A program made the translations under genes and the position numbers. Shown one piece after another: positions 10,785 through 21,859 of a stretch of DNA of 64,000 nt. How positions within the stretch are numbered: position 1 is the first letter of the stretch; every line of letters begins with the position of its first letter. Below the pieces are notes generated by a model. That model saw only the letters and a program-made list of their open reading frames with translations, made no database searches and was not told where the DNA came from. The stretch is from a candidate division WOR-3 bacterium (lineage in GTDB: Bacteria; Hydrothermota; UBA3073): the NCBI GenBank assembly GCA_030606335.1, contig JAUWGP010000003.1:26065-90064 (forward strand), given 5' to 3'.

Positions 10785-13133
10785 ATGGAAAAATTTAATA
10801 TGCATCTCAGCGAAGCAGATACAAGAGCAAAATTAATTGACCCCGCTCTCCATCTTTCTGGATGGACAGAAGACCTTGTAAGACGTGAAGAAACTGAGAG
10901 AGGTATTGATATTATAGATGGAAAACCACGCAGAAGAAGAAGGGGACGAATAGATTATATTCTACGCATTAAAGTTAATATTAACTCACAACCCATCGCA
11001 GTTGCTTTAATAGAAGCTAAGAAAAGCGATAACCCACCTGATAAAGGACTCGAACAAGCAAAGAAGTACGCAAGACTAAATAACGTACCTTTTGTATATT
11101 CTTCCAATGGTCATCTCTTTGTGGAATATGACAACTTTACAGGTAAAACTTCTCACCCGAATTCTTTAGAAAAGTTTCCTACACCATTTGAACTACGACA
11201 ACGCCATGAAAAAGGGATTGGTATTTCACTTGATAAAGAAAATGCAAAGCCACTTCTTATCCCGTATCCAGGAGGTGAAGCAAGCCGTCGTTATTATCAG
11301 GATGCAGCAATTCGTGCTACACTCGAGAAAATTATACAGGGAAAAAAACGGATGCTCCTATTCCTTGCTACAGGCTCCGGGAAAACCTTCATTGCGGTTC
11401 GTCTTTTGAAGAAGATTGCAGATGCTGGGCATTTACATCGTGCTTTATTTCTTTGTGACAGGGATGAACTCCGAAATCAGGGACTTTCAGCATATCAAAA
11501 TATTTTTGGTGCTGATGCTGCTCCTGTATCTACTGCAAATCCACAGAAAAACGCAAGAATTTTAATAGCAACATATCAAACTCTTAATGTAGCAGGCGAG
11601 AACGAAGATGCTAAATTCTTACTCGATAACTATCCTGAAAACTATTTCAGTCATATAATAATCGATGAATGCCATAGGAGTGCCTGGGGTAAATGGAGTA
11701 TCGTGCTAAAAAGAAATTCCGATGCAATTCAAATAGGACTTACAGCCACTCCACGTTACTGGGAGGGTGGTAGTAAGGAGGAAAAAAAAGTAGACAAAGA
11801 GATAACTGCTAACAACCTTCAATATTTTGGCGAACCAATTTACGAATACTCAATGTCACAAGGAATTGAAGATGGTTATCTCCCTGCTTGTGAGGTGATA
11901 AGACGCGATGTGAATCTCGATATAATAGGTGTCACACGAAATGATATTAAAGTATTGGGAGCAAGAGATGCTACAACAGGTAAGCAACTTACACCCGACG
12001 AAACCCGTGAGATATACGAAGCTACATCCTTTGAGGATATTATTCAATTGCCTGACAGAGTAGAAACAATGTGTAAAGACCTTTTTAAAATGTTCCTTCA
12101 AACGGGTGGACCTCACCAGAAGACAGTTATTTTTTGTGTGCGTGATACCCATGCAGATGCCATTGCCGCTGAAATAAATAATCTTTATGCTGAGTGGTGT
12201 GATAGAAATAAGCAAAAAAGATATGAGCCTTATGCATTCAAATGCACTGCTTCTGTGGGAGGAAGCAAATATATATCAGATTTGCGTAGCTTAGAGCGAA
12301 GTCATTTTATCGCTACTACAGTTGATTTAATAACTACAGGAGTTGATATACCAATATTACGTAATGTAGTATTCTTTAGATATATCCGTTCTCCAATATA
12401 CTTTCAACAAATGATGGGAAGGGGGTCAAGAATTCATCTTCCTACAAATAAATTGATGTTTCGGGTTTATGATTATACGGATGCTACAAGACTGTTAGGA
12501 GAAGAGTTTAAGTCAAAACCCTCACCCACACGAGAAAAAAAGGAAACAGAAGAGGGAGAAAAAGAAAGAATAATCCGAGTAGAAGGATTTGATGTTCGAA
12601 TTAATCCTGCCGGAACTTATATTGTCACTGAAAAAGAAGGAAGATTATCAATGGTTACAGTAGAGGAGTACAAGCAGACTATTGCAGAGCACTTGGTTGA
12701 AAATGTTAAAACATTAGACGATCTTCGTCATAGATGGATAAATCCTGAGGAACGTGGAGAGCTTATAGATTCCCTTCCCGAAGACGGACGAGGAATAAGA
12801 ATGCTGCAGGAACTTCTTAATCGAAAAGAATATGACCTTTATGATTTAATGGCAGAAATCGGGTTTGGTGTATCCCCTAAAAGTCGTGAGGAAAGAGTTG
12901 AAGCCCTTCAATATAAACATGCTGACTGGTTTAAACATTTACCCTCAGAAACAGCAAAAACATTGTTTGCACTTGCAAGGCAATTTGAAAGAGGCGGTAC
13001 TGAAGAATTAGAAAACCCGTATGTTTTCAATGCTCCTGATGTTGTTAAAGCGGGTGGACATCAAGCTTTAAAGGTGCTTGGTGGACCAAAAGACATTATT
13101 ATTGAGATGAAAAGGAGGTTATTTGCAGCCTGA
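10785..13133 (+). CDS. hsdR: Type I restriction enzyme R subunit (EcoEI-like size class)
   Basis: N-terminal HsdR signature MHLSEADTRAKLIDPALHLSGW; helicase motif I LATGSGKT and motif II IIIDECHRS; 782 aa. Confidence 0.9.
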   Translation: MEKFNMHLSEADTRAKLIDPALHLSGWTEDLVRREETERGIDIIDGKPRRRRRGRIDYILRIKVNINSQPIAVALIEAKKSDNPPDKGLEQAKKYARLNNVPFVYSSNGHLFVEYDNFTGKTSHPNSLEKFPTPFELRQRHEKGIGISLDKENAKPLLIPYPGGEASRRYYQDAAIRATLEKIIQGKKRMLLFLATGSGKTFIAVRLLKKIADAGHLHRALFLCDRDELRNQGLSAYQNIFGADAAPVSTANPQKNARILIATYQTLNVAGENEDAKFLLDNYPENYFSHIIIDECHRSAWGKWSIVLKRNSDAIQIGLTATPRYWEGGSKEEKKVDKEITANNLQYFGEPIYEYSMSQGIEDGYLPACEVIRRDVNLDIIGVTRNDIKVLGARDATTGKQLTPDETREIYEATSFEDIIQLPDRVETMCKDLFKMFLQTGGPHQKTVIFCVRDTHADAIAAEINNLYAEWCDRNKQKRYEPYAFKCTASVGGSKYISDLRSLERSHFIATTVDLITTGVDIPILRNVVFFRYIRSPIYFQQMMGRGSRIHLPTNKLMFRVYDYTDATRLLGEEFKSKPSPTREKKETEEGEKERIIRVEGFDVRINPAGTYIVTEKEGRLSMVTVEEYKQTIAEHLVENVKTLDDLRHRWINPEERGELIDSLPEDGRGIRMLQELLNRKEYDLYDLMAEIGFGVSPKSREERVEALQYKHADWFKHLPSETAKTLFALARQFERGGTEELENPYVFNAPDVVKAGGHQALKVLGGPKDIIIEMKRRLFAA

Positions 13134-14034
13134 AAAGGAGATATTTGATTTTCTTGTTGAAAATGCAATATACCCTATGATTAGTAAGAAGGGTAAGGTC
13201 TTCTTTAAATATCCGAAGAAAGGAATGTTAACTGAGGCTAAAGCAAGAGAAATTATTGAACAATTGGATATTAAGACCAGAAATGACTGCAAAAAATTAA
13301 GGGAAAAAATCAGAAACCTGAGATCTGCATTCAGAGAAAATCGTCCTATAAGCAAATGGATTAAAGAGGAAAGACCAAGGGAGATGCTGGTTAAATACGG
13401 TCCCGAGTTCCTCCCTTTATCAAAACTTCTTGCAATAATATTAAGGATAGGAAGGGAAGGAATAAGTGCAGAAGAACTATCAAAAAGGTTATTGAATAAG
13501 TTTGGTGCATTAAGGAAAATAGATACTGCAACAATTTCTGAGATACGTGAGATAGAAGGAATAGGTCTTGCAAAAGCAGCACAAATAAAAGCTGCACTTG
13601 AACTTGGTAAAAGGCTATATAAAGAAACTGCTGTAAGGAAGAGAAAGATAACAAAACCAGATGAACTTATTGAGTATGTAGCAGAATATTACGGTCCTTA
13701 TCTAAGGGACTCTGTTAAAGAGTTTTTTTATGTCATACTTCTGGATATAAAAAATAAACCTATTGATAACGTGGAAATAAGTAAGGGTAGTATAAATGCA
13801 AGTGTGGTAGATCCAAAGGATATTGTAAAAGAAGCAACTATACGGTCAGCCTCGTCAATAATTTTGGTTCATAATCATCCATCAGGTGAGACAGACCCAT
13901 CTGAAGAGGATAAAAGGTTAACAAAATCAATTATAGATGCCTGTGAACTCATTGATATAAAGGTATTAGACCATATAATCATTGGAAAAAATCAAGAAGA
14001 CTATTTTAGTTTCGTAAAGAACGGATTGATATAA
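13123..14034 (+). CDS. radC: RadC-like JAB/MPN-domain protein with an N-terminal extension
   Basis: ERPREMLVKYGPEFLPLSKLLAIILRIGREG, HhH motif IEGIGLAKAAQI, JAMM motif LVHNHPSGETDPSEEDKRLT. TTG start with AAGGAGG 5 nt upstream; overlaps the hsdR stop by 11 nt. Confidence 0.8.
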   Translation: MQPEKEIFDFLVENAIYPMISKKGKVFFKYPKKGMLTEAKAREIIEQLDIKTRNDCKKLREKIRNLRSAFRENRPISKWIKEERPREMLVKYGPEFLPLSKLLAIILRIGREGISAEELSKRLLNKFGALRKIDTATISEIREIEGIGLAKAAQIKAALELGKRLYKETAVRKRKITKPDELIEYVAEYYGPYLRDSVKEFFYVILLDIKNKPIDNVEISKGSINASVVDPKDIVKEATIRSASSIILVHNHPSGETDPSEEDKRLTKSIIDACELIDIKVLDHIIIGKNQEDYFSFVKNGLI

Positions 14035-14050
14035 TAGAGATTATTTTATT

Positions 14051-15526
14051 ATGAAAAAATATAAAATATTCGTAAGTGGCGTTCAGAGAGAGCTCAAAGA
14101 GGAGCGGTTTGCAGTAAAAGAAATCATCACTCTGAACACTTTTTTAAAGAAATACTTTGATGTCTTTCTTTTTGAGGACCTGCCAGCCAAAAGCAAGCCA
14201 GCAGAAAAGGTCTACCTTGGAAAAGTCTCGGAGAGTGATATCCTGCTATTGTTATTGGGAAAGGAGTATGGACAACCCAGTCCTGATGGTCTTTCAGCTA
14301 CAGAAAGGGAATTTAGAAAGGCTGTGGAACGGAATTTGAAAATCCTGGTTTTTTTGAGAGGAGAAGATGACTCTACCAGAGACAGGCGGGTTAGAAATCT
14401 TATACGGGAGATAAAAAGACCGGGCAGTGGATATACTTATGATGAATTTAATGGTACGTCCGATTTAAAAGAATGTGTTTTCAATAGTCTTGTAGAACTC
14501 CTGGAGGATGATGGTATTCTTGCCAGGCTCCCCTTCGATTCTACAATTTGTGAAGAAGCAACTTATGAAGACATAAATGAAGAACTGGTAGAGAACTTCC
14601 TGAAGTATAGAGCAATAAAACTAAAAGTGGAAGTTCCTGAAATACCCATAAGAGATTTCTTAGTAAAGACTATTAAAGCGGTCCGGGAATTAGACGGAAT
14701 CTTTAAGCTAACTAATGCAGCGATTCTTTTCTTTTGTGATTATCCTCAAGAATTCATTTCTCAAAGCAGTATAAAGATAGCAAGATACAGGGGGAATTCA
14801 AGGATAGAATTTATTGACTCACAGGAACTTACTGGTCCATTCTATAAAATAATTGATGATTTAGAGATATTCTTTAAAAGAAATACCCGATTAGCCAGCA
14901 AGATTGTGGAGTTTAAGAGAGTGGATATTCCCGAGTATCCCTTTGAGGCAATAAGAGAAGGAATAGTCAATGCAATGGCTCACAGAGATTATCTCCGCAT
15001 TGGTTCTAATATTCAGATGGATATCTTTAACGATAGAATAGAGGTCACCAGCCCCGGAGGACTTCTTCCAGGGTTGGACATTAAAAATCTGGAAGGGGTT
15101 CATGAGACGAGAAACAAAAGGATTTGCAAAATCTTTCACGAAACGAAAGATATGGAAAGATATGGGACTGGTATTACTAAAATGAAGAATTGGATGACAG
15201 AACACGGTTTGAAGCCGCCAGTAATAACTCAACCAGGTGATTTCTTCAGAATTAATTTTTATGGTCCGGGTGATAAGATATTAGATTTAGTTCCCAATAT
15301 ACCCGAAGAAAGACAAACAGATTTGAAAAAATTGGGCTTAAATAACAGACAAATAGAAGCATTAAGATTGATGGTAAATGAAGGGAAAGCCTTAACAAAC
15401 AGAAAATACAGAGAATTGTTTAACGTTAGCAATCAAACATTCGTTAGAGATATGCGACTACTGTCCAAGTTGGAATTTGTCACTTCCGAAGGTAAAGGTC
15501 GGTCTTTGCAATACAAAGCAAAATAA
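14051..15526 (+). CDS. DUF4062 / AlbA_2 (divergent AAA) / HATPase_c_4 protein with C-terminal HTH (Schlafen-like 'RecG-related' regulator family)
   Basis: N-terminus KIFVSGVQRELKEERFAVKEII...ILLLLLGKEYG matches the DUF4062 pattern. The middle has AIREGIVNAMAHRDYLRIGSNIQMDIFNDRIEVTSPGGLLPG (HATPase_c_4). The C-terminus has an HTH (NNRQIEALRLMVNEGKALTNRKYRELFNVSNQTFVRDMRLL). Confidence 0.6.
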   Translation: MKKYKIFVSGVQRELKEERFAVKEIITLNTFLKKYFDVFLFEDLPAKSKPAEKVYLGKVSESDILLLLLGKEYGQPSPDGLSATEREFRKAVERNLKILVFLRGEDDSTRDRRVRNLIREIKRPGSGYTYDEFNGTSDLKECVFNSLVELLEDDGILARLPFDSTICEEATYEDINEELVENFLKYRAIKLKVEVPEIPIRDFLVKTIKAVRELDGIFKLTNAAILFFCDYPQEFISQSSIKIARYRGNSRIEFIDSQELTGPFYKIIDDLEIFFKRNTRLASKIVEFKRVDIPEYPFEAIREGIVNAMAHRDYLRIGSNIQMDIFNDRIEVTSPGGLLPGLDIKNLEGVHETRNKRICKIFHETKDMERYGTGITKMKNWMTEHGLKPPVITQPGDFFRINFYGPGDKILDLVPNIPEERQTDLKKLGLNNRQIEALRLMVNEGKALTNRKYRELFNVSNQTFVRDMRLLSKLEFVTSEGKGRSLQYKAK

Positions 15527-15774: not shown

Positions 15775-16458
15775 GTGGAGGTGTCGTTAATGCTTAATCT
15801 ACAGAGAGGAATTCCAATCGAAGATGGAGATTTGTTTATCTTAGATACAAATCCATTCAGATTTTTGTATCTGGCAGCGGAAAGCCTAATCAAAGATGCA
15901 GAGCAAGCTGCAACCAAAAATAAGCATCGGGTTGAAATTAATCATTCTATTGGAGCACTTGTGGTGCTTCTTCTATCTACCGAAGCACTCATAAACAGAG
16001 TGTATGAGTGTTTCCTTAGAAGTAAATTCCCCAGACAGATATACGAAGAGATTATGGGTAAATGGTCTCTCACAATGAAATGGTATTTTGCTCCTCTGAT
16101 TTATAAATCTGGTGGTAACAATAAAACCTTTGATGTTAAAAAAGAACCCTGGCAATCTTTTTCTGAACTGAAAAAGATCAGGGATTATTTTGCTCACCCA
16201 AAGCCAGCCCAATTTCCCTTTACAGTATTAGATGCTAAAAAAAAGATCTTGGATGTTAATGAGGGCGTTATACCAAGATGGCCCCAAACAACAATTCCTA
16301 AAGACTTGAACCATTTTCGTTGGAAGGATGCTCAAACGGTTTTGGAAATTATTAATAAAATGATTGATAAATTAGACTCCTTCATGGGGGGAACAATCAA
16401 AAAGGACGATTGGTATTTAATAGAACAAATGAGTAAATATGAAAAAGCAGCTGAATAA
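15775..16458 (+). CDS. hypothetical protein embedded in the Type I RM locus
   Basis: About 222-227 aa. GGAGG at 15777-15781 precedes the ATG at 15790; the track ORF starts at GTG 15775. No recognisable motif. The 3' end overlaps the hsdS start by 20 nt. Confidence 0.5.
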   Translation: MEVSLMLNLQRGIPIEDGDLFILDTNPFRFLYLAAESLIKDAEQAATKNKHRVEINHSIGALVVLLLSTEALINRVYECFLRSKFPRQIYEEIMGKWSLTMKWYFAPLIYKSGGNNKTFDVKKEPWQSFSELKKIRDYFAHPKPAQFPFTVLDAKKKILDVNEGVIPRWPQTTIPKDLNHFRWKDAQTVLEIINKMIDKLDSFMGGTIKKDDWYLIEQMSKYEKAAE

Positions 16459-17581
16459 AGAAATACTTCCACCCGACTGGCGATGGGTGAAGTTGGGGGA
16501 AGTATGTGAGTTTGCGTATGGTTCAGGATTACCGGTACGAGATAGATTGAAGGGTCTCATTCCTGTATTTGGCTCAAACGGTGTTATTGGTTACCATAAC
16601 ATGGCAATTACTCAAAGTCCTACAATTATAATTGGTCGCAAGGGTTCAATTGGTCAAGTGAATTCTTCAGAATCTCCATGTTGGCCAATTGATACAACTT
16701 ACTACATTGACGAATCCAAAACCTCCTGTTATCTACATTGGCTGTACTGGTTACTTAAGTACCTGAGACTAGACGAACTTAATAAAGCGACTGGGGTGCC
16801 AGGTTTGAATCGTAATGACGCCTATAGTCAAGTTATCCCCCTCCCTCCTCTTTCTGAGCAGAAGCGCATCGCTGCAAAAATTAAGGAGTTAATGCAGGAG
16901 GTAGAACATGCCCGAACAGCCTGCGAAAAGCAATTAGAGGCAGCAAAAGCCCTTCCCTCCGCATATCTGCGAGAGGTCTTTAAAAGCGAAGATGCAAAGA
17001 AGTGGGAGAGTAAGAGGTTGGGAGAGGTTTGTGAGACTACAAGCGGAGGCACTCCATATAGAGGGAATAAAGAGTATTTTGACGGGGATATTCCCTGGGT
17101 GAAATCGGGAGAATTGGAAGACAATTACATCTATGACACGGAAGAGAAAATAACAGAATTAGGTCTTAAAAATTCTAGTGCTAAAATTTTGCCTATGGGA
17201 ACATTGTTAATTGCAATGTATGGAGCAACTGTTGGAAAGTTGGGGGTCTTGAATATTTCCGCTACTACTAATCAAGCTATTTGTGCCATTATTCCAAATT
17301 CCAAAGCCTCGACCAATTTTCTCTTTTTCTTTTTCATGCATTTTAGAAGAGACCTGGTCAATAAATCTTATGGAGGTGCTCAGCCAAATATCAGTCAAGA
17401 ACTAATAAAAGAAACACACATTCCTTTTCCGTCTATAAAAACCCAGCATCGTATTGCCGCTGAACTCAAAGAAAAAAAAGCAGAGGTAGATAAACTTCAC
17501 TCATCCATTGAAAGACAATTTGAAGCAATAAACGCCTTGCCACAGGCAATTTTAAGGAAGGCATTCATAGGGAAGTTGTGA
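16439..17581 (+). CDS. hsdS: Type I restriction-modification specificity subunit (two target-recognition domains)
   Basis: Two half-repeats, each starting with a conserved motif (LPPDWRWVKLGEVCEF / ESKRLGEVCETTSGGTP), each followed by a conserved coiled-coil spacer (LPPLSEQKRIAAKI..., FPSIKTQHRIAAEL...). Confidence 0.9.
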   Translation: MKKQLNKEILPPDWRWVKLGEVCEFAYGSGLPVRDRLKGLIPVFGSNGVIGYHNMAITQSPTIIIGRKGSIGQVNSSESPCWPIDTTYYIDESKTSCYLHWLYWLLKYLRLDELNKATGVPGLNRNDAYSQVIPLPPLSEQKRIAAKIKELMQEVEHARTACEKQLEAAKALPSAYLREVFKSEDAKKWESKRLGEVCETTSGGTPYRGNKEYFDGDIPWVKSGELEDNYIYDTEEKITELGLKNSSAKILPMGTLLIAMYGATVGKLGVLNISATTNQAICAIIPNSKASTNFLFFFFMHFRRDLVNKSYGGAQPNISQELIKETHIPFPSIKTQHRIAAELKEKKAEVDKLHSSIERQFEAINALPQAILRKAFIGKL

Positions 17582-17634
17582 TGGAAATTAAACCTACTAC
17601 ATTTATCTCTGTGATATCAACAAAAATATAAGAA

Positions 17635-18702
17635 ATGAATCTAAATAAACGGTCAAATAGCTTTTCCCAAGAAAATATTACTCGCATTACAGAATTCTTT
17701 AAAAATCAGCAACTTCCTGAACCTCATTTACATCTTTTTAAGAGTGTGGTTTGGAAGGGATATCGTTGGAGAGCAATTTGGAACACTCTCCATTATCGTC
17801 CACTTCATGAAACATTTCATGAATTTATCATATATATTTTGAAAGCAACTTTTGGTGAAAAATGGCGCAAAGAGCAGATGAATTTGTCTGAAGAAGAAAG
17901 ACATATTCTTATTCGCTGGGTTAAATCTTATGGTGAATGGAAAAAAGCTACTCATAATGATGAAAAGAAAGAAGGCGAGTATATCTATGGTGCTATCCCA
18001 AGTGGTGAAGTTATGGCACTCCATTCATTTGCTTATGATATATATTGCCTCCAAGTAGTCAATAAGTTACCAAACTTCTTAGTAAATAGACTGAAGAATA
18101 AAAATGAATTCCAAGGTGCAAGATATGAAATAGCTGTGGCTGCTATTATCGCTCGAGCGGGCTTTGCTATAACCTTCCTCGATGACAAGGTTAAAAGTCA
18201 AAAGCATTGTGAATTCGTCGCCAAGAATAAATATTCTGGGTTACAAATTGGAGTTGAAGCTAAAAGTCGAAGAAGGAAAGGTGTACTCCATGAAAAAGGA
18301 AATTTGAATTACTCTTCAGTTGTAAGAGGAGACATTGAGAACCTTTTTGAAAAGGCTCTTACTCAGAGGCCCAAGAACATGCCATATTTTATTTTCATCG
18401 ACTTGAATGTAATGCCTACCCCAGACCCAGAAATTCCCCCTGACAAAAAACCATGGTTTAAGGATATAAAATTGCTATTAGATAGATATGGGATACCTTC
18501 TAAAGAAAATCCAGATCCGTTTAATGCATTGGTGTTGACTAATTTTTCTTATTATTATTTGGGAAACTTACCTATTACTCATTTGGGAGAATACGGTCTA
18601 ATCATCTCTGAAATTCCAGAATACCCGTGCAAAGATATGCAGGCTATAAGTGAAATATGGGAAAGTTTAGGACGGTATTCTCATATTCCGAAAGATGTAT
18701 AA
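17635..18702 (+). CDS. hypothetical protein between hsdS and hsdM; possible PD-(D/E)xK-like nuclease core (inference)
   Basis: 355 aa with no P-loop. The segment ARYEIAVAAIIARAGFAITFLDDKVKSQKHCEFVAKNKYSGLQIGVEAKSRRRK fits a helix-E, strand-D, strand-ExK arrangement. Confidence 0.45.
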   Translation: MNLNKRSNSFSQENITRITEFFKNQQLPEPHLHLFKSVVWKGYRWRAIWNTLHYRPLHETFHEFIIYILKATFGEKWRKEQMNLSEEERHILIRWVKSYGEWKKATHNDEKKEGEYIYGAIPSGEVMALHSFAYDIYCLQVVNKLPNFLVNRLKNKNEFQGARYEIAVAAIIARAGFAITFLDDKVKSQKHCEFVAKNKYSGLQIGVEAKSRRRKGVLHEKGNLNYSSVVRGDIENLFEKALTQRPKNMPYFIFIDLNVMPTPDPEIPPDKKPWFKDIKLLLDRYGIPSKENPDPFNALVLTNFSYYYLGNLPITHLGEYGLIISEIPEYPCKDMQAISEIWESLGRYSHIPKDV

Positions 18703-18725
18703 CCTTATACCCTAAATTATCTTAT

Positions 18726-20231
18726 ATGCGAAAAAATTCTCACAAAATAACCACACCACAATCTCTGAATGCCTATATCAAGGGTATCTGTGATATTATG
18801 CGGAGGTCGGGAAGAGCTGGGGCTCTCCAGTATGTGCCTGAACTTACCTGGATGCTCTTCCTCCGTATTCTTGATGAAAAAGAGGAGATAGAAGTAGAAT
18901 ATACTAAAGCATTAGGTAGAGAATTTATTCCTTCACTCCAATATCCATATCGCTGGCGAGATTGGGCTGCTCCTGATGGAGAAAAAAGAAAGGAATTACA
19001 AGAGGGAACATTTGGAAGATTTATGAGCTTCGTCGATGGAGACCTGCTCCCTACCCTCAAAAAATTAAAGGATAAACCTGGTGCAACTCCTCGTCAGAAG
19101 GTTGTCAGTCAAGTCTTCTCCTCTTTTGAAAAAACGGGTATTGATACCGAACGCAATCTTTTAGATATACTTGATAAAATTCATGAACTCTCCTTGGAGC
19201 AAGTTGAAGAAACCCACATGTTCACACTCTCCCAGGTCTATGAGGGACTGATACAGAAAATGGGTGAGAAAAACAACGACGGTGGACAGTTTTTCACACC
19301 AAGAGAGGTTATTCGTGTTATGGTTAAAGTGATTGACCCGAAGATTGGAGAAACCGTTTATGACCCCTGCTGTGGAACGGGTGGGTTTCTGGCTCAGGCA
19401 TATCTACATATGAATAAAAATGCAACAATAGCAGATGACATTGAAACCCTCAAGATTAGAACCTTCTACGGTAGAGAGAAAGAAAATCTTGTTTACCCCA
19501 TTGTCCTTGCAAATCTCGTGCTTCATGAGATAGATGAACCACATATATGGCATGGCAACACGCTAACAGGTCATGAGGTTTATGGTGGACTTTTCCAAAG
19601 TGCACCCGTCCTCTTTGATGTAGTCCTCACTAATCCTCCCTTTGGTGGTAAAGAGGGAAAAGATGCTCGGACTCATTTTGCCTATAAAACCAGCTCTACA
19701 CAGGTATTGTTCTTGCAACATGTCATTGATAACCTTAAAAATAGTGGCAGGTGTGGAATCGTAATGGATGAAGGTGTTTTATTCCGCACAAATGAGAAAG
19801 CCTTTGTCCAGACTAAACGCAAACTCTTGAGTGAGTGCAACCTCTATTGTATTGTAAGTCTTCCTCCCAAGGTATTCCTTAATGCTGGTGCAGCAAGTAA
19901 AACCAATCTACTTTTTTTCACTAAAGGTGAACAAACTAAAGAAATATGGTATTATGACCTATCTGATTTAAATGTAACAAAAAGGCAGCCCTTAACTATG
20001 CATCACTTTGAGGAGTTCTTTAAATTATTACCAGAAAAAAAAGAAAGTGAGCATTCCTGGAAGGTTCCAATAGAAGAAATAGAAGAGAAAAATTACGACA
20101 TAAAAGCAGTAAATCCAAACAGAAAAATCGAGGAAGACACAAGAAGCCCGCAAGAGCTATTAGCAATTATTGAGTCCCAGCAAAAAGAAATCACAAACGC
20201 ATTATCAAAATTGAAAGATAAAGGCTTGTGA
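18726..20231 (+). CDS. hsdM: Type I restriction-modification N6-adenine DNA methyltransferase subunit
   Basis: HsdM N-domain (GALQYVPELTWMLFLRILDEKEE), GTGGFL SAM-binding motif, NPPFGG catalytic motif. The start is taken at the ATG at 18726, after the stop of the upstream gene. Confidence 0.9.
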   Translation: MRKNSHKITTPQSLNAYIKGICDIMRRSGRAGALQYVPELTWMLFLRILDEKEEIEVEYTKALGREFIPSLQYPYRWRDWAAPDGEKRKELQEGTFGRFMSFVDGDLLPTLKKLKDKPGATPRQKVVSQVFSSFEKTGIDTERNLLDILDKIHELSLEQVEETHMFTLSQVYEGLIQKMGEKNNDGGQFFTPREVIRVMVKVIDPKIGETVYDPCCGTGGFLAQAYLHMNKNATIADDIETLKIRTFYGREKENLVYPIVLANLVLHEIDEPHIWHGNTLTGHEVYGGLFQSAPVLFDVVLTNPPFGGKEGKDARTHFAYKTSSTQVLFLQHVIDNLKNSGRCGIVMDEGVLFRTNEKAFVQTKRKLLSECNLYCIVSLPPKVFLNAGAASKTNLLFFTKGEQTKEIWYYDLSDLNVTKRQPLTMHHFEEFFKLLPEKKESEHSWKVPIEEIEEKNYDIKAVNPNRKIEEDTRSPQELLAIIESQQKEITNALSKLKDKGL

Positions 20232-20239
20232 GATATAAT

Positions 20240-20451
20240 ATGATAAAATCTAACCCTTTCACTCCAAAGTCTGGTTTGGAGCAGAAAATCTTTTTCAATA
20301 GGGAAGATGAGATAAAATTGCCGATATTGAGATAAAAAGTTTGAATGTTTATCTTCGTAGGTTGGTAGAGAAAGAAATCTTAATTGGTGTTAGGCGTGGC
20401 GAATATAAATTAAAAGACATTCTATTGTGTGAATACCTGAGAAGAAAATAA
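20240..20451 (+). pseudogene. degraded remnant of an AAA-type (PF01637-like) ATPase gene
   Basis: Frame A encodes MIKSNPFTPKSGLEQKIFFNREDEIKLPILR*, the characteristic NPF.P...FxxREDEI N-terminus of 'archaeal-type' ATPases. A second frame at 20353-20451 encodes LRRLVEKEILIGVRRGEYKLKDILLCEYLRRK*, a wHTH-like C-terminus. The body of the gene is missing. Confidence 0.3.
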
Positions 20452-20812
20452 CAAAAATTACAAATCAAGCCTAATGTTGTAATTTCTGTAATTTTGGATA
20501 TAGAATTCTTAGGGATCGTAGGGTCAAGTCTCAACATAAGACATTTTTATTGGCGAGGGAAGTTCGGTGGCGGGGTACTCCAACGAGAGCTGTAATTTGA
20601 GTGCATTACCTTGGTAATGCAAGTGGGCGGTAGCAAGCTATTGCAATTCTTAATCTCTAAGATAGATTTTATTTAATAAAAAGGAAATATTAATAGGGAT
20701 TACAATTAGAAAGATAAACTTCTTTTGGTAAGACTAATGGGGGTCAGTTCTTGGCACACTCCAAAGAAGTTTTAATAGCACTGTAGAAATTAATCAGTAT
20801 TAGGATATAGAT

Positions 20813-21859
20813 ATGTTTAAACCAAAATTCACAATCACCAATAAAATAAACAATTTCCTTCTTGAAATTGAGAGGGCAAGAGGATTTTTGGAGGCGGCAA
20901 AGTTAAAGGAGGCATGGATAAAGGATATGCAAAGTGAAGCACTTATCCTTGAAGCGCACCACTCTACACATATTGAAGGAACTCAACTGACCTTATCCCA
21001 GGCTCAAAGAATTCTTACCGGCAAATCTGTAAAGGGCATTAGGAAAGATGATCGTCAAGAACTCCTGAACTATAAAGAGGCAACTGATTTTGTCTCCGAA
21101 TACCTGGGGAAGAAATTAGAAATCACGGAGGATTTAATTAAGCAGATACACAAGATTTTAGTTAAAGATGTCAGGGGTGGAACCCTTGAGCCAGGAAGAT
21201 ATAGAAAAGTTCAGAATTATGTAGTCAACTCCTTGACAAGAGCAATAATTTATATTCCGCCCCCTCCAGAGGAAGTTCCTAAACTAATGAAAGAATTCGT
21301 TGAATGGTTAAACGTAAAAAAGAAGATATCACCTGTGCTCATGGCAGGGATCAGTCAATATCAGTTTGTTGACATTCATCCCTTCTTAGATGGAAACGGA
21401 AGGACTGCTCGTGTTTTATGTACGCTCATTCTTTATCAGAATGAATATGATTTTAAAAGGCTTTTTTCATTGTCCGAATATTACGACAAAAAACGCCGGA
21501 GGTACTACGACGCCATTCAATCAGTGAGAGAGAATAATATAGATATGACAGAATGGCTCGAATATTTTACAGAAGGACTGAAAAATCAATTGATAGAAGT
21601 AAAAACAAAGGGAGAAAAGGCAATTAAAAAGGAAGTTCTCATTGAGAAGGCTAAAAGATTTAACTTAAACGAGCGTCAACAGAAAATTTTATTACATTTA
21701 TTGGAGCAAAAGCGGATTTCGGTTGAGGAAATCAGACAGAAATATAATTTGGTTAGAAGAACGATTCAACGTGATTTCTCAAAATTGGTTGAGTTAGGTC
21801 TAATAAAGGAAATAGCAAAAAGCAAGACAGACCCTACAAGGTATTATGAATTACTGTGA
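20813..21859 (+). CDS. fic: Fic/DOC family protein (AMPylator-type) with C-terminal winged-helix domain
   Basis: Canonical Fic motif HPFLDGNGRTARVL; 348 aa. Confidence 0.9.
   Translation: MFKPKFTITNKINNFLLEIERARGFLEAAKLKEAWIKDMQSEALILEAHHSTHIEGTQLTLSQAQRILTGKSVKGIRKDDRQELLNYKEATDFVSEYLGKKLEITEDLIKQIHKILVKDVRGGTLEPGRYRKVQNYVVNSLTRAIIYIPPPPEEVPKLMKEFVEWLNVKKKISPVLMAGISQYQFVDIHPFLDGNGRTARVLCTLILYQNEYDFKRLFSLSEYYDKKRRRYYDAIQSVRENNIDMTEWLEYFTEGLKNQLIEVKTKGEKAIKKEVLIEKAKRFNLNERQQKILLHLLEQKRISVEEIRQKYNLVRRTIQRDFSKLVELGLIKEIAKSKTDPTRYYELL

Follow-up and report, generated by a model that had tools for sequence, protein, structure and literature searches.

The window analysed here, i.e. a stretch of 64,000 nucleotides (nt) from contig JAUWGP010000003.1 of a candidate division WOR-3 bacterium, with coordinates counted from its first letter, contains a Type I restriction-modification (R-M) locus in which an additional open reading frame (ORF), here called gene X, lies between the genes for the specificity subunit, hsdS, and the methyltransferase, hsdM. 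Gene X (17635-18702, plus strand) starts with ATG and comprises 355 codons plus the stop codon. These boundaries, already reported in a first-pass annotation of this DNA, agree with the ORF list and the sequence and are reproduced where genes were called independently on a public contig of identical sequence. Directly upstream, hsdS (16439-17581, plus strand; Methylase_S, 1.1e-45) ends 53 nt before gene X, and hsdM (18726-20231, plus strand; N6_Mtase, 2.6e-66, and HsdM_N) follows directly downstream. The mechanically called hsdM ORF starts at 18657 and overlaps gene X by 46 nt; we favour the ATG at 18726, to which both the independent call and the HsdM_N alignment point, and this likely start leaves a gap of 23 nt. 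As both gaps are short, no terminator-like site is found on the plus strand within 15970-20627, and the promoter scan around gene X gave matches at chance level only, it is plausible that gene X is co-transcribed with its hsd neighbours. The locus bears no compositional trace of recent transfer, the GC content being even at 0.34-0.41, and there are no tRNA genes within the window.

The product of gene X has no counterpart in the curated libraries, i.e. searches against Pfam, NCBIfam, PADLOC and PHROGs returned zero matches even at E≤1, and a single-sequence search of the PDB sequences gave no match to the protein either. Its structure was modelled with AlphaFold2 from a 49-sequence alignment (mean predicted local distance difference test score, pLDDT, 89.9; predicted template modelling score, pTM, 0.89), and the model comprises two domains. 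The N-terminal domain (residues 1-158; 17635-18108, plus strand), as defined by model and conservation, consists of a three-stranded β-element (residues 38-56) followed by a helical bundle, and its conserved positions include ETFHEF (residues 59-64), W77, H90, G124 and D135. The C-terminal domain (residues 159-355; 18109-18699, plus strand) is built from α1 (159-174), β1 (177-181), β2 (194-198), β3 (204-211), α2 (234-242), β4 (251-256), α3 (273-285) and β5 (298-303). The order of elements in residues 159-303 is α-β-β-β-α-β, as in restriction-endonuclease-like proteins, and is predicted with high confidence; the core for which the first-pass annotation had proposed to search an AlphaFold model is thus predicted. 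Fold searches with the model matched almost exclusively PD-(D/E)xK nucleases, the structural neighbours including Hjc, VRR-NUC/FAN1, TnsA and XisH-like proteins, with DNases predominating. An hhalign comparison of the gene X family with the nuclease domain of the window's own HsdR gave no signal. Taken together, the predicted fold, the fold-search matches and the invariance of E165 and E208/K210 bear out the PD-(D/E)xK-like core suggested earlier, and make it very likely that the modelled protein is a genuine PD-(D/E)xK-fold nuclease.

The candidate catalytic residues were placed by combining predicted secondary structure with an alignment of 238 near-full-length homologues, to which all of the following counts refer. 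E165 (codon 18127-18129, plus strand) is located in helix α1 and is Glu in every sequence. E193 (18211-18213, plus strand), part of an HCEF motif and located one residue before strand β2, is at the position of the acid of the PD motif, where Glu is found in 227 and Asp in 9 homologues; residue 192 is Pro in 43 sequences, giving a literal P-(D/E). The (D/E)xK motif is formed by E208-A-K210 (18256-18264, plus strand) in strand β3, with E208 conserved in 237 and K210 in 236 homologues. E165, E193, E208 and K210 are therefore at the canonical places, i.e. in helix 1, at the start of strand 2 and in strand 3. The ExK motif is followed by a basic run, S211-R-R-R214 (S211 in 233, R214 in 227 homologues). 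Moreover, the C-terminal domain contains an extra invariant polar pair, D256-L-N258 (18400-18408, plus strand), with D256 at the end of β4 (Asp or Glu in 237 homologues) and N258 just after it (237 homologues), which possibly contributes a second metal or a substrate contact.

The peptide on which the first-pass annotation had based its nuclease assignment, ARYEIAV...SRRRK, corresponds to residues 162-215, and the residue numbers given there are 5-7 too high, i.e. E215/K217 are E208/K210, and D188 is D183 or D184. Its helix Glu and its ExK motif were chosen correctly, whereas its strand-1 Asp was not: D183, following strand 1, is Asp in 160 homologues and Lys, Arg or Pro elsewhere, D184 is Asp in 90, and this poor conservation rules out either as catalytic acid, the canonical position being held by E193. 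As evidence, the motif itself counts for little, since 950 of 1000 shuffled versions of the gene X protein contain the pattern E...[DE]...[DE]xK; it is conservation across the homologues, together with the predicted fold, that makes it credible above chance, and E165, E208 and K210 did not prove variable.

Although the fold is a familiar one, gene X differs from the nucleases with which it may be compared. With minimal PD-(D/E)xK nucleases, i.e. archaeal Hjc, VRR-NUC/FAN1 and the catalytic domains of the Type IIS enzymes PaqCI, BsmI and FokI, it shares no detectable sequence similarity, and in contrast to these it has a large conserved N-terminal domain, the D256/N258 pair, extra C-terminal strands and Glu instead of Asp at the 'PD' position. 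The defence effectors HamA (Hachiman), NucC (CBASS/Type III CRISPR), Shedu SduA and the Mrr/MspJI-type Type IV enzymes act together with a helicase partner, with a cyclic nucleotide as signal or with a domain that reads modified DNA, whereas nothing of this sort is detectable in gene X, for which PADLOC also has no matching model.

A word-indexed search yielded 301 homologues of gene X at E≤1e-3, and when 1.84 billion representatives were searched exhaustively with a profile, 1,004 clusters (50% identity) were obtained at E≤1e-30. The family is a two-domain one within a well-known nuclease superfamily and is undescribed in curated libraries; at NCBI some homologues are labelled 'YecA family' or 'SEC-C domain-containing', and 'hypothetical' is a further database label for its members. 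Genome matches come from Omnitrophota, Planctomycetota, Bacillota, Patescibacteria (candidate phyla radiation, CPR), Acidobacteriota, Actinomycetota, Gammaproteobacteria and others, and the spread across phyla is patchy with no conserved synteny. Viral members are restricted to three distant relatives among 2.9 million viral contigs.

Most family members are headed by an N-terminal SEC-C zinc knuckle (GRNDPCPCGSGKKYKKCC, CxC...C(C/H)), to which the match of the family profile to PDB sequences is confined (~20 residues). The same knuckle is found in YecA, YchJ and the SecA C-terminus, but the likeness ends with this motif of ~20 residues, as the UPF0149 and NTF2-like bodies are absent from gene X, and the window protein lacks even the motif. 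Protein databases, as judged from the coding sequences, undercount SEC-C in this family, because several entries (P0004, P0008, P0011 and P0039; P and L numbers are our labels for homologous proteins and loci) begin at an internal Met codon with the SEC-C motif encoded upstream in frame; such extensions are found in L001 (9875-10000) and L004 (9932-10000), and also in L082 and L094. The window gene is different: no SEC-C remnant is found upstream of it in any frame, and an in-frame stop codon lies directly upstream. Its nearest relative, P0002 (81% identity), has the same short N-terminus, so that a small lineage has truly lost the motif, the two proteins representing the only clean loss among the relatives examined. 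This loss is not linked to Type I association (Fisher p=1.0). SEC-C is also the only domain fused to long family members, with the exception of P0225 (456 aa, family match at residues 144-454), in which matches to a HicB-like antitoxin and a HicA toxin precede the family domain; this may reflect a gene-call fusion of adjoining genes or a true toxin-antitoxin link. On plasmids, SEC-C motifs were found in 1,144 PLSDB records, on YecA, UPF0149, TPR, DUF4238 and DUF4145 proteins, of which DUF4145 has been linked to Type I R-M, and this distribution suggests that SEC-C is a widely reused add-on of plasmid- and defence-associated proteins.

The genomic context was assessed at 80 loci of homologues, each taken with as much as 10 kb of sequence to either side, and all 1,399 neighbouring ORFs were clustered. 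An hsdM-like gene is present at 8 and any Type I gene at 9 of these loci. No conserved partner gene emerged, i.e. the commonest neighbour clusters (ABC ATPases, serine recombinases and integrases) occur at no more than 11 of the 80 loci and at scattered positions, and the 148 ORFs at positions ±1 and ±2 belong to 140 different Pfam families, none of which is represented more than four times. At least four lineages have a homologue within or next to a Type I operon, with four different gene orders: hsdM-hsdS-(1162 aa)-YgjP-X at L001, hsdM-Fic-...-X-...-hsdR at L004, hsdR-hsdM-hsdS-X at L016 and hsdS-X-hsdM in the window. In three independent contigs the gene for P0002 lies 22 nt past the end of an hsdS, and the 150 nt that follow it contain no ORF. 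Other close relatives are flanked by a BamHI-type system and Mrr, adjoin an integrase gene with methylase and ResIII genes in the vicinity, or are carried by a resolvase/DUF932/methylase element; a further relative is part of a HEPN/SNase/GIY-YIG/SocA island, and relatives of 58-61% identity have genes of glycogen or other metabolism, or genes without assigned function, as neighbours. This is the context of a self-sufficient mobile defence-island gene rather than that of a component depending on Type I R-M.

The Type I operon of the window is itself a multi-gene defence island. Its co-directional genes, all on the plus strand, begin with hsdR (10785-13133; ResIII, SWI2_SNF2, EcoEI_R_C and HSDR_N), the end of which is overlapped by a RadC/JAB gene (13123-14034), and continue with a gene for a DUF4062 and HATPase_c_4 protein ('RecG C-terminal', Schlafen/AlbA-like; 14051-15526), an uncharacterised ORF of 227 aa (15775-16458), hsdS, gene X and hsdM, and, about 580 nt past hsdM, a gene for a Fic protein (20813-21859; PADLOC SoFic model, 1.7e-71). 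For the DUF4062/HATPase_c_4 protein, PADLOC gave a match to its models of pAgo-associated SIR2-PNTD proteins (4e-17); genes of this kind are found again near gene X homologues at L004 and L025, and SLFN_AlbA_2 domains are found in 2 of the 148 ORFs adjoining homologues. Fic genes are located near homologues at L004, L020 and L077, and a RadC gene at L041. The last 20 nt of the 227-aa ORF, which an independent call shortens to 222 aa with a start at 15790, overlap the start of hsdS; searches against Pfam, NCBIfam, PADLOC and PHROGs gave no match, none of the 80 homologue loci has a counterpart, and the ORF is thus unexplained cargo in the Type I operon.

The location of gene X suggests comparison with PrrC and RloC, and the first-pass annotation had accordingly proposed an R-M-guarded suicide nuclease. 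In such a model gene X would encode a latent nuclease that is silenced by physical contact with the Type I complex, in the way that EcoprrI restrains PrrC, and that is freed when a phage anti-restriction factor disables the complex. The likeness is that of an extra ORF in a Type I hsd cluster which encodes a predicted nuclease without cognate immunity gene, and the short gaps on both sides of gene X, the lack of a terminator-like site between hsdS and hsdM and the recurrence in or beside Type I operons in several lineages would fit such an arrangement. Moreover, P0002 directly follows hsdS as well and shares the clean loss of SEC-C, and the fraction of loci with Type I genes, about 10%, would, by rough expectation, be far higher than for a random gene. 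Nevertheless, about 90% of the homologue loci contain no Type I gene within 10 kb, the position within the Type I operon varies from case to case, and the relatives of 58-61% identity have metabolic or unassigned neighbours. PrrC and RloC combine an ABC/Rad50-like ATPase domain, including Walker A, with a HEPN-type RNase domain. The gene X protein, in contrast, has no regulatory ATPase domain: a Pfam scan found no ATPase family match, and a motif scan of the full protein found neither [GA]xxxxGK[ST] nor any GK[ST], confirming the absence of a P-loop noted before. Its C-terminal domain is of the PD-(D/E)xK and not of the HEPN type, searches with Pfam and PADLOC revealed no similarity to PrrC or RloC, and Type I linkage is restricted to the window, P0002, L001, L004 and L016. 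The analogy therefore fails on the NTPase domain, on the nuclease domain and on consistent R-M linkage, and the many unrelated cargo genes at the same locus point to an insertion hotspot rather than a specific partnership. Across the family the guard proposal is thus not supported, and for gene X itself we consider it quite improbable; a lineage-specific guard or functional tie to the Type I enzyme is possible for the pair lacking SEC-C, because P0002, too, directly follows hsdS.

A different comparison is offered by Rugutis, a single-gene antiphage system of lactococcal plasmids with a protein of ~359 aa and an N-terminal SEC-C motif, the fold of which was reported to be unlike anything in the PDB (PMC11381338, PMC12184496) and which confers phage resistance, its toxicity being triggered by the phage large terminase (PMC12184496). 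Typical members of the gene X family resemble it in the N-terminal SEC-C motif, a length of ~360 aa, the single-gene organisation and a confident model with no strong PDB match, and membership of gene X in the same family would imply an abortive-infection nuclease with the phage large terminase as its trigger. This is doubtful. The likeness is one of description, as no sequence or accession of the Rugutis protein (pUCCL633_059) was found in the literature; tblastn with two gene X family members found no Lactococcus plasmid, tblastn of the SEC-C consensus against plasmids gave no usable Lactococcus protein, and no Lactococcus or Pontibacillus protein is among the named family matches. Furthermore, a shared SEC-C means little for a motif carried at one end or the other by so many unrelated plasmid proteins, the window protein lacks it, and the family clearly has a PD-(D/E)xK core whereas the Rugutis fold was described as novel. 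An Enterococcus plasmid SEC-C protein was set aside for its different architecture (C-terminal motif, 455 aa), and P0299, which has exactly 359 aa and derives from environmental metagenome contigs of ~2 kb, was dismissed as a coincidence of length. In an unlikely but consequential extension, the gene X family would be a wider Rugutis-type clade, the Rugutis fold would then be a PD-(D/E)xK fold with an E/E/ExK site gated by a novel, terminase-sensing N-terminal domain, and the window lineage would have been recruited into a Type I operon and be expressed with it as a further layer of defence; a relationship to Rugutis, if true, would provide this experimentally validated antiphage system with the effector mechanism it has lacked. 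It also appears improbable that gene X encodes a housekeeping or mobile-element nuclease in repair, recombination or element maintenance, with no role in immunity and as a mere passenger in the Type I locus. Some relatives do reside among metabolic genes and others in integrase or resolvase elements, the structural neighbours Hjc, VRR-NUC/FAN1, TnsA and XisH-like proteins would suit such functions, and PADLOC holds no defence-system model matching gene X, but the patchy distribution without conserved synteny is unlike that of core repair genes, and the family recurs beside restriction and other defence genes. Finally, as metal-binding domains of the SEC-C/SecA type can bind to ribosomes and to SecB, and tRNases are known among PD-(D/E)xK toxins, the family might cut RNA at or near the ribosome; with mostly DNases as structural neighbours and a window protein that, if functional, works without SEC-C, we regard this as highly improbable.

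On balance, we lean towards the view that gene X encodes a stand-alone, metal-dependent PD-(D/E)xK endonuclease of an independent immunity or abortive-infection type that is not guarded by the Type I enzyme. Catalysis would be carried out by E165, E193, E208 and K210, possibly helped by D256 and N258, and the substrate would be a nucleic acid, DNA being likelier than RNA by analogy, since most structural neighbours are DNases. RNA would be the less likely substrate, in favour of which stand the fold shared with CdiA-CT toxins and the ribosome binding of SEC-C domains. The conserved N-terminal domain probably targets or binds the substrate or gates the active site; gating is probable because a lone nuclease without an immunity gene must be restrained somehow. 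The family may thus be seen as a horizontally mobile, self-contained single gene which inserts into variable regions, for example R-M clusters, defence islands of other kinds and integrated mobile elements, and of which a lineage devoid of SEC-C has lodged between hsdS and hsdM in the window, where it is probably transcribed together with both and where a role as independent immunity or abortive-infection-type nuclease appears most likely.

For experimental work, this implies that mutating the 'D188' of the first-pass annotation would probably give a misleading negative. The place of gene X inside a Type I operon is no evidence of PrrC-like guarding; rather, one more gene is added to the cargo accumulating in Type I restriction operons, and a family of ~1,000 clusters without curated description gains a fold, a candidate catalytic site and testable residues, i.e. 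E165, E193, E208 and K210.
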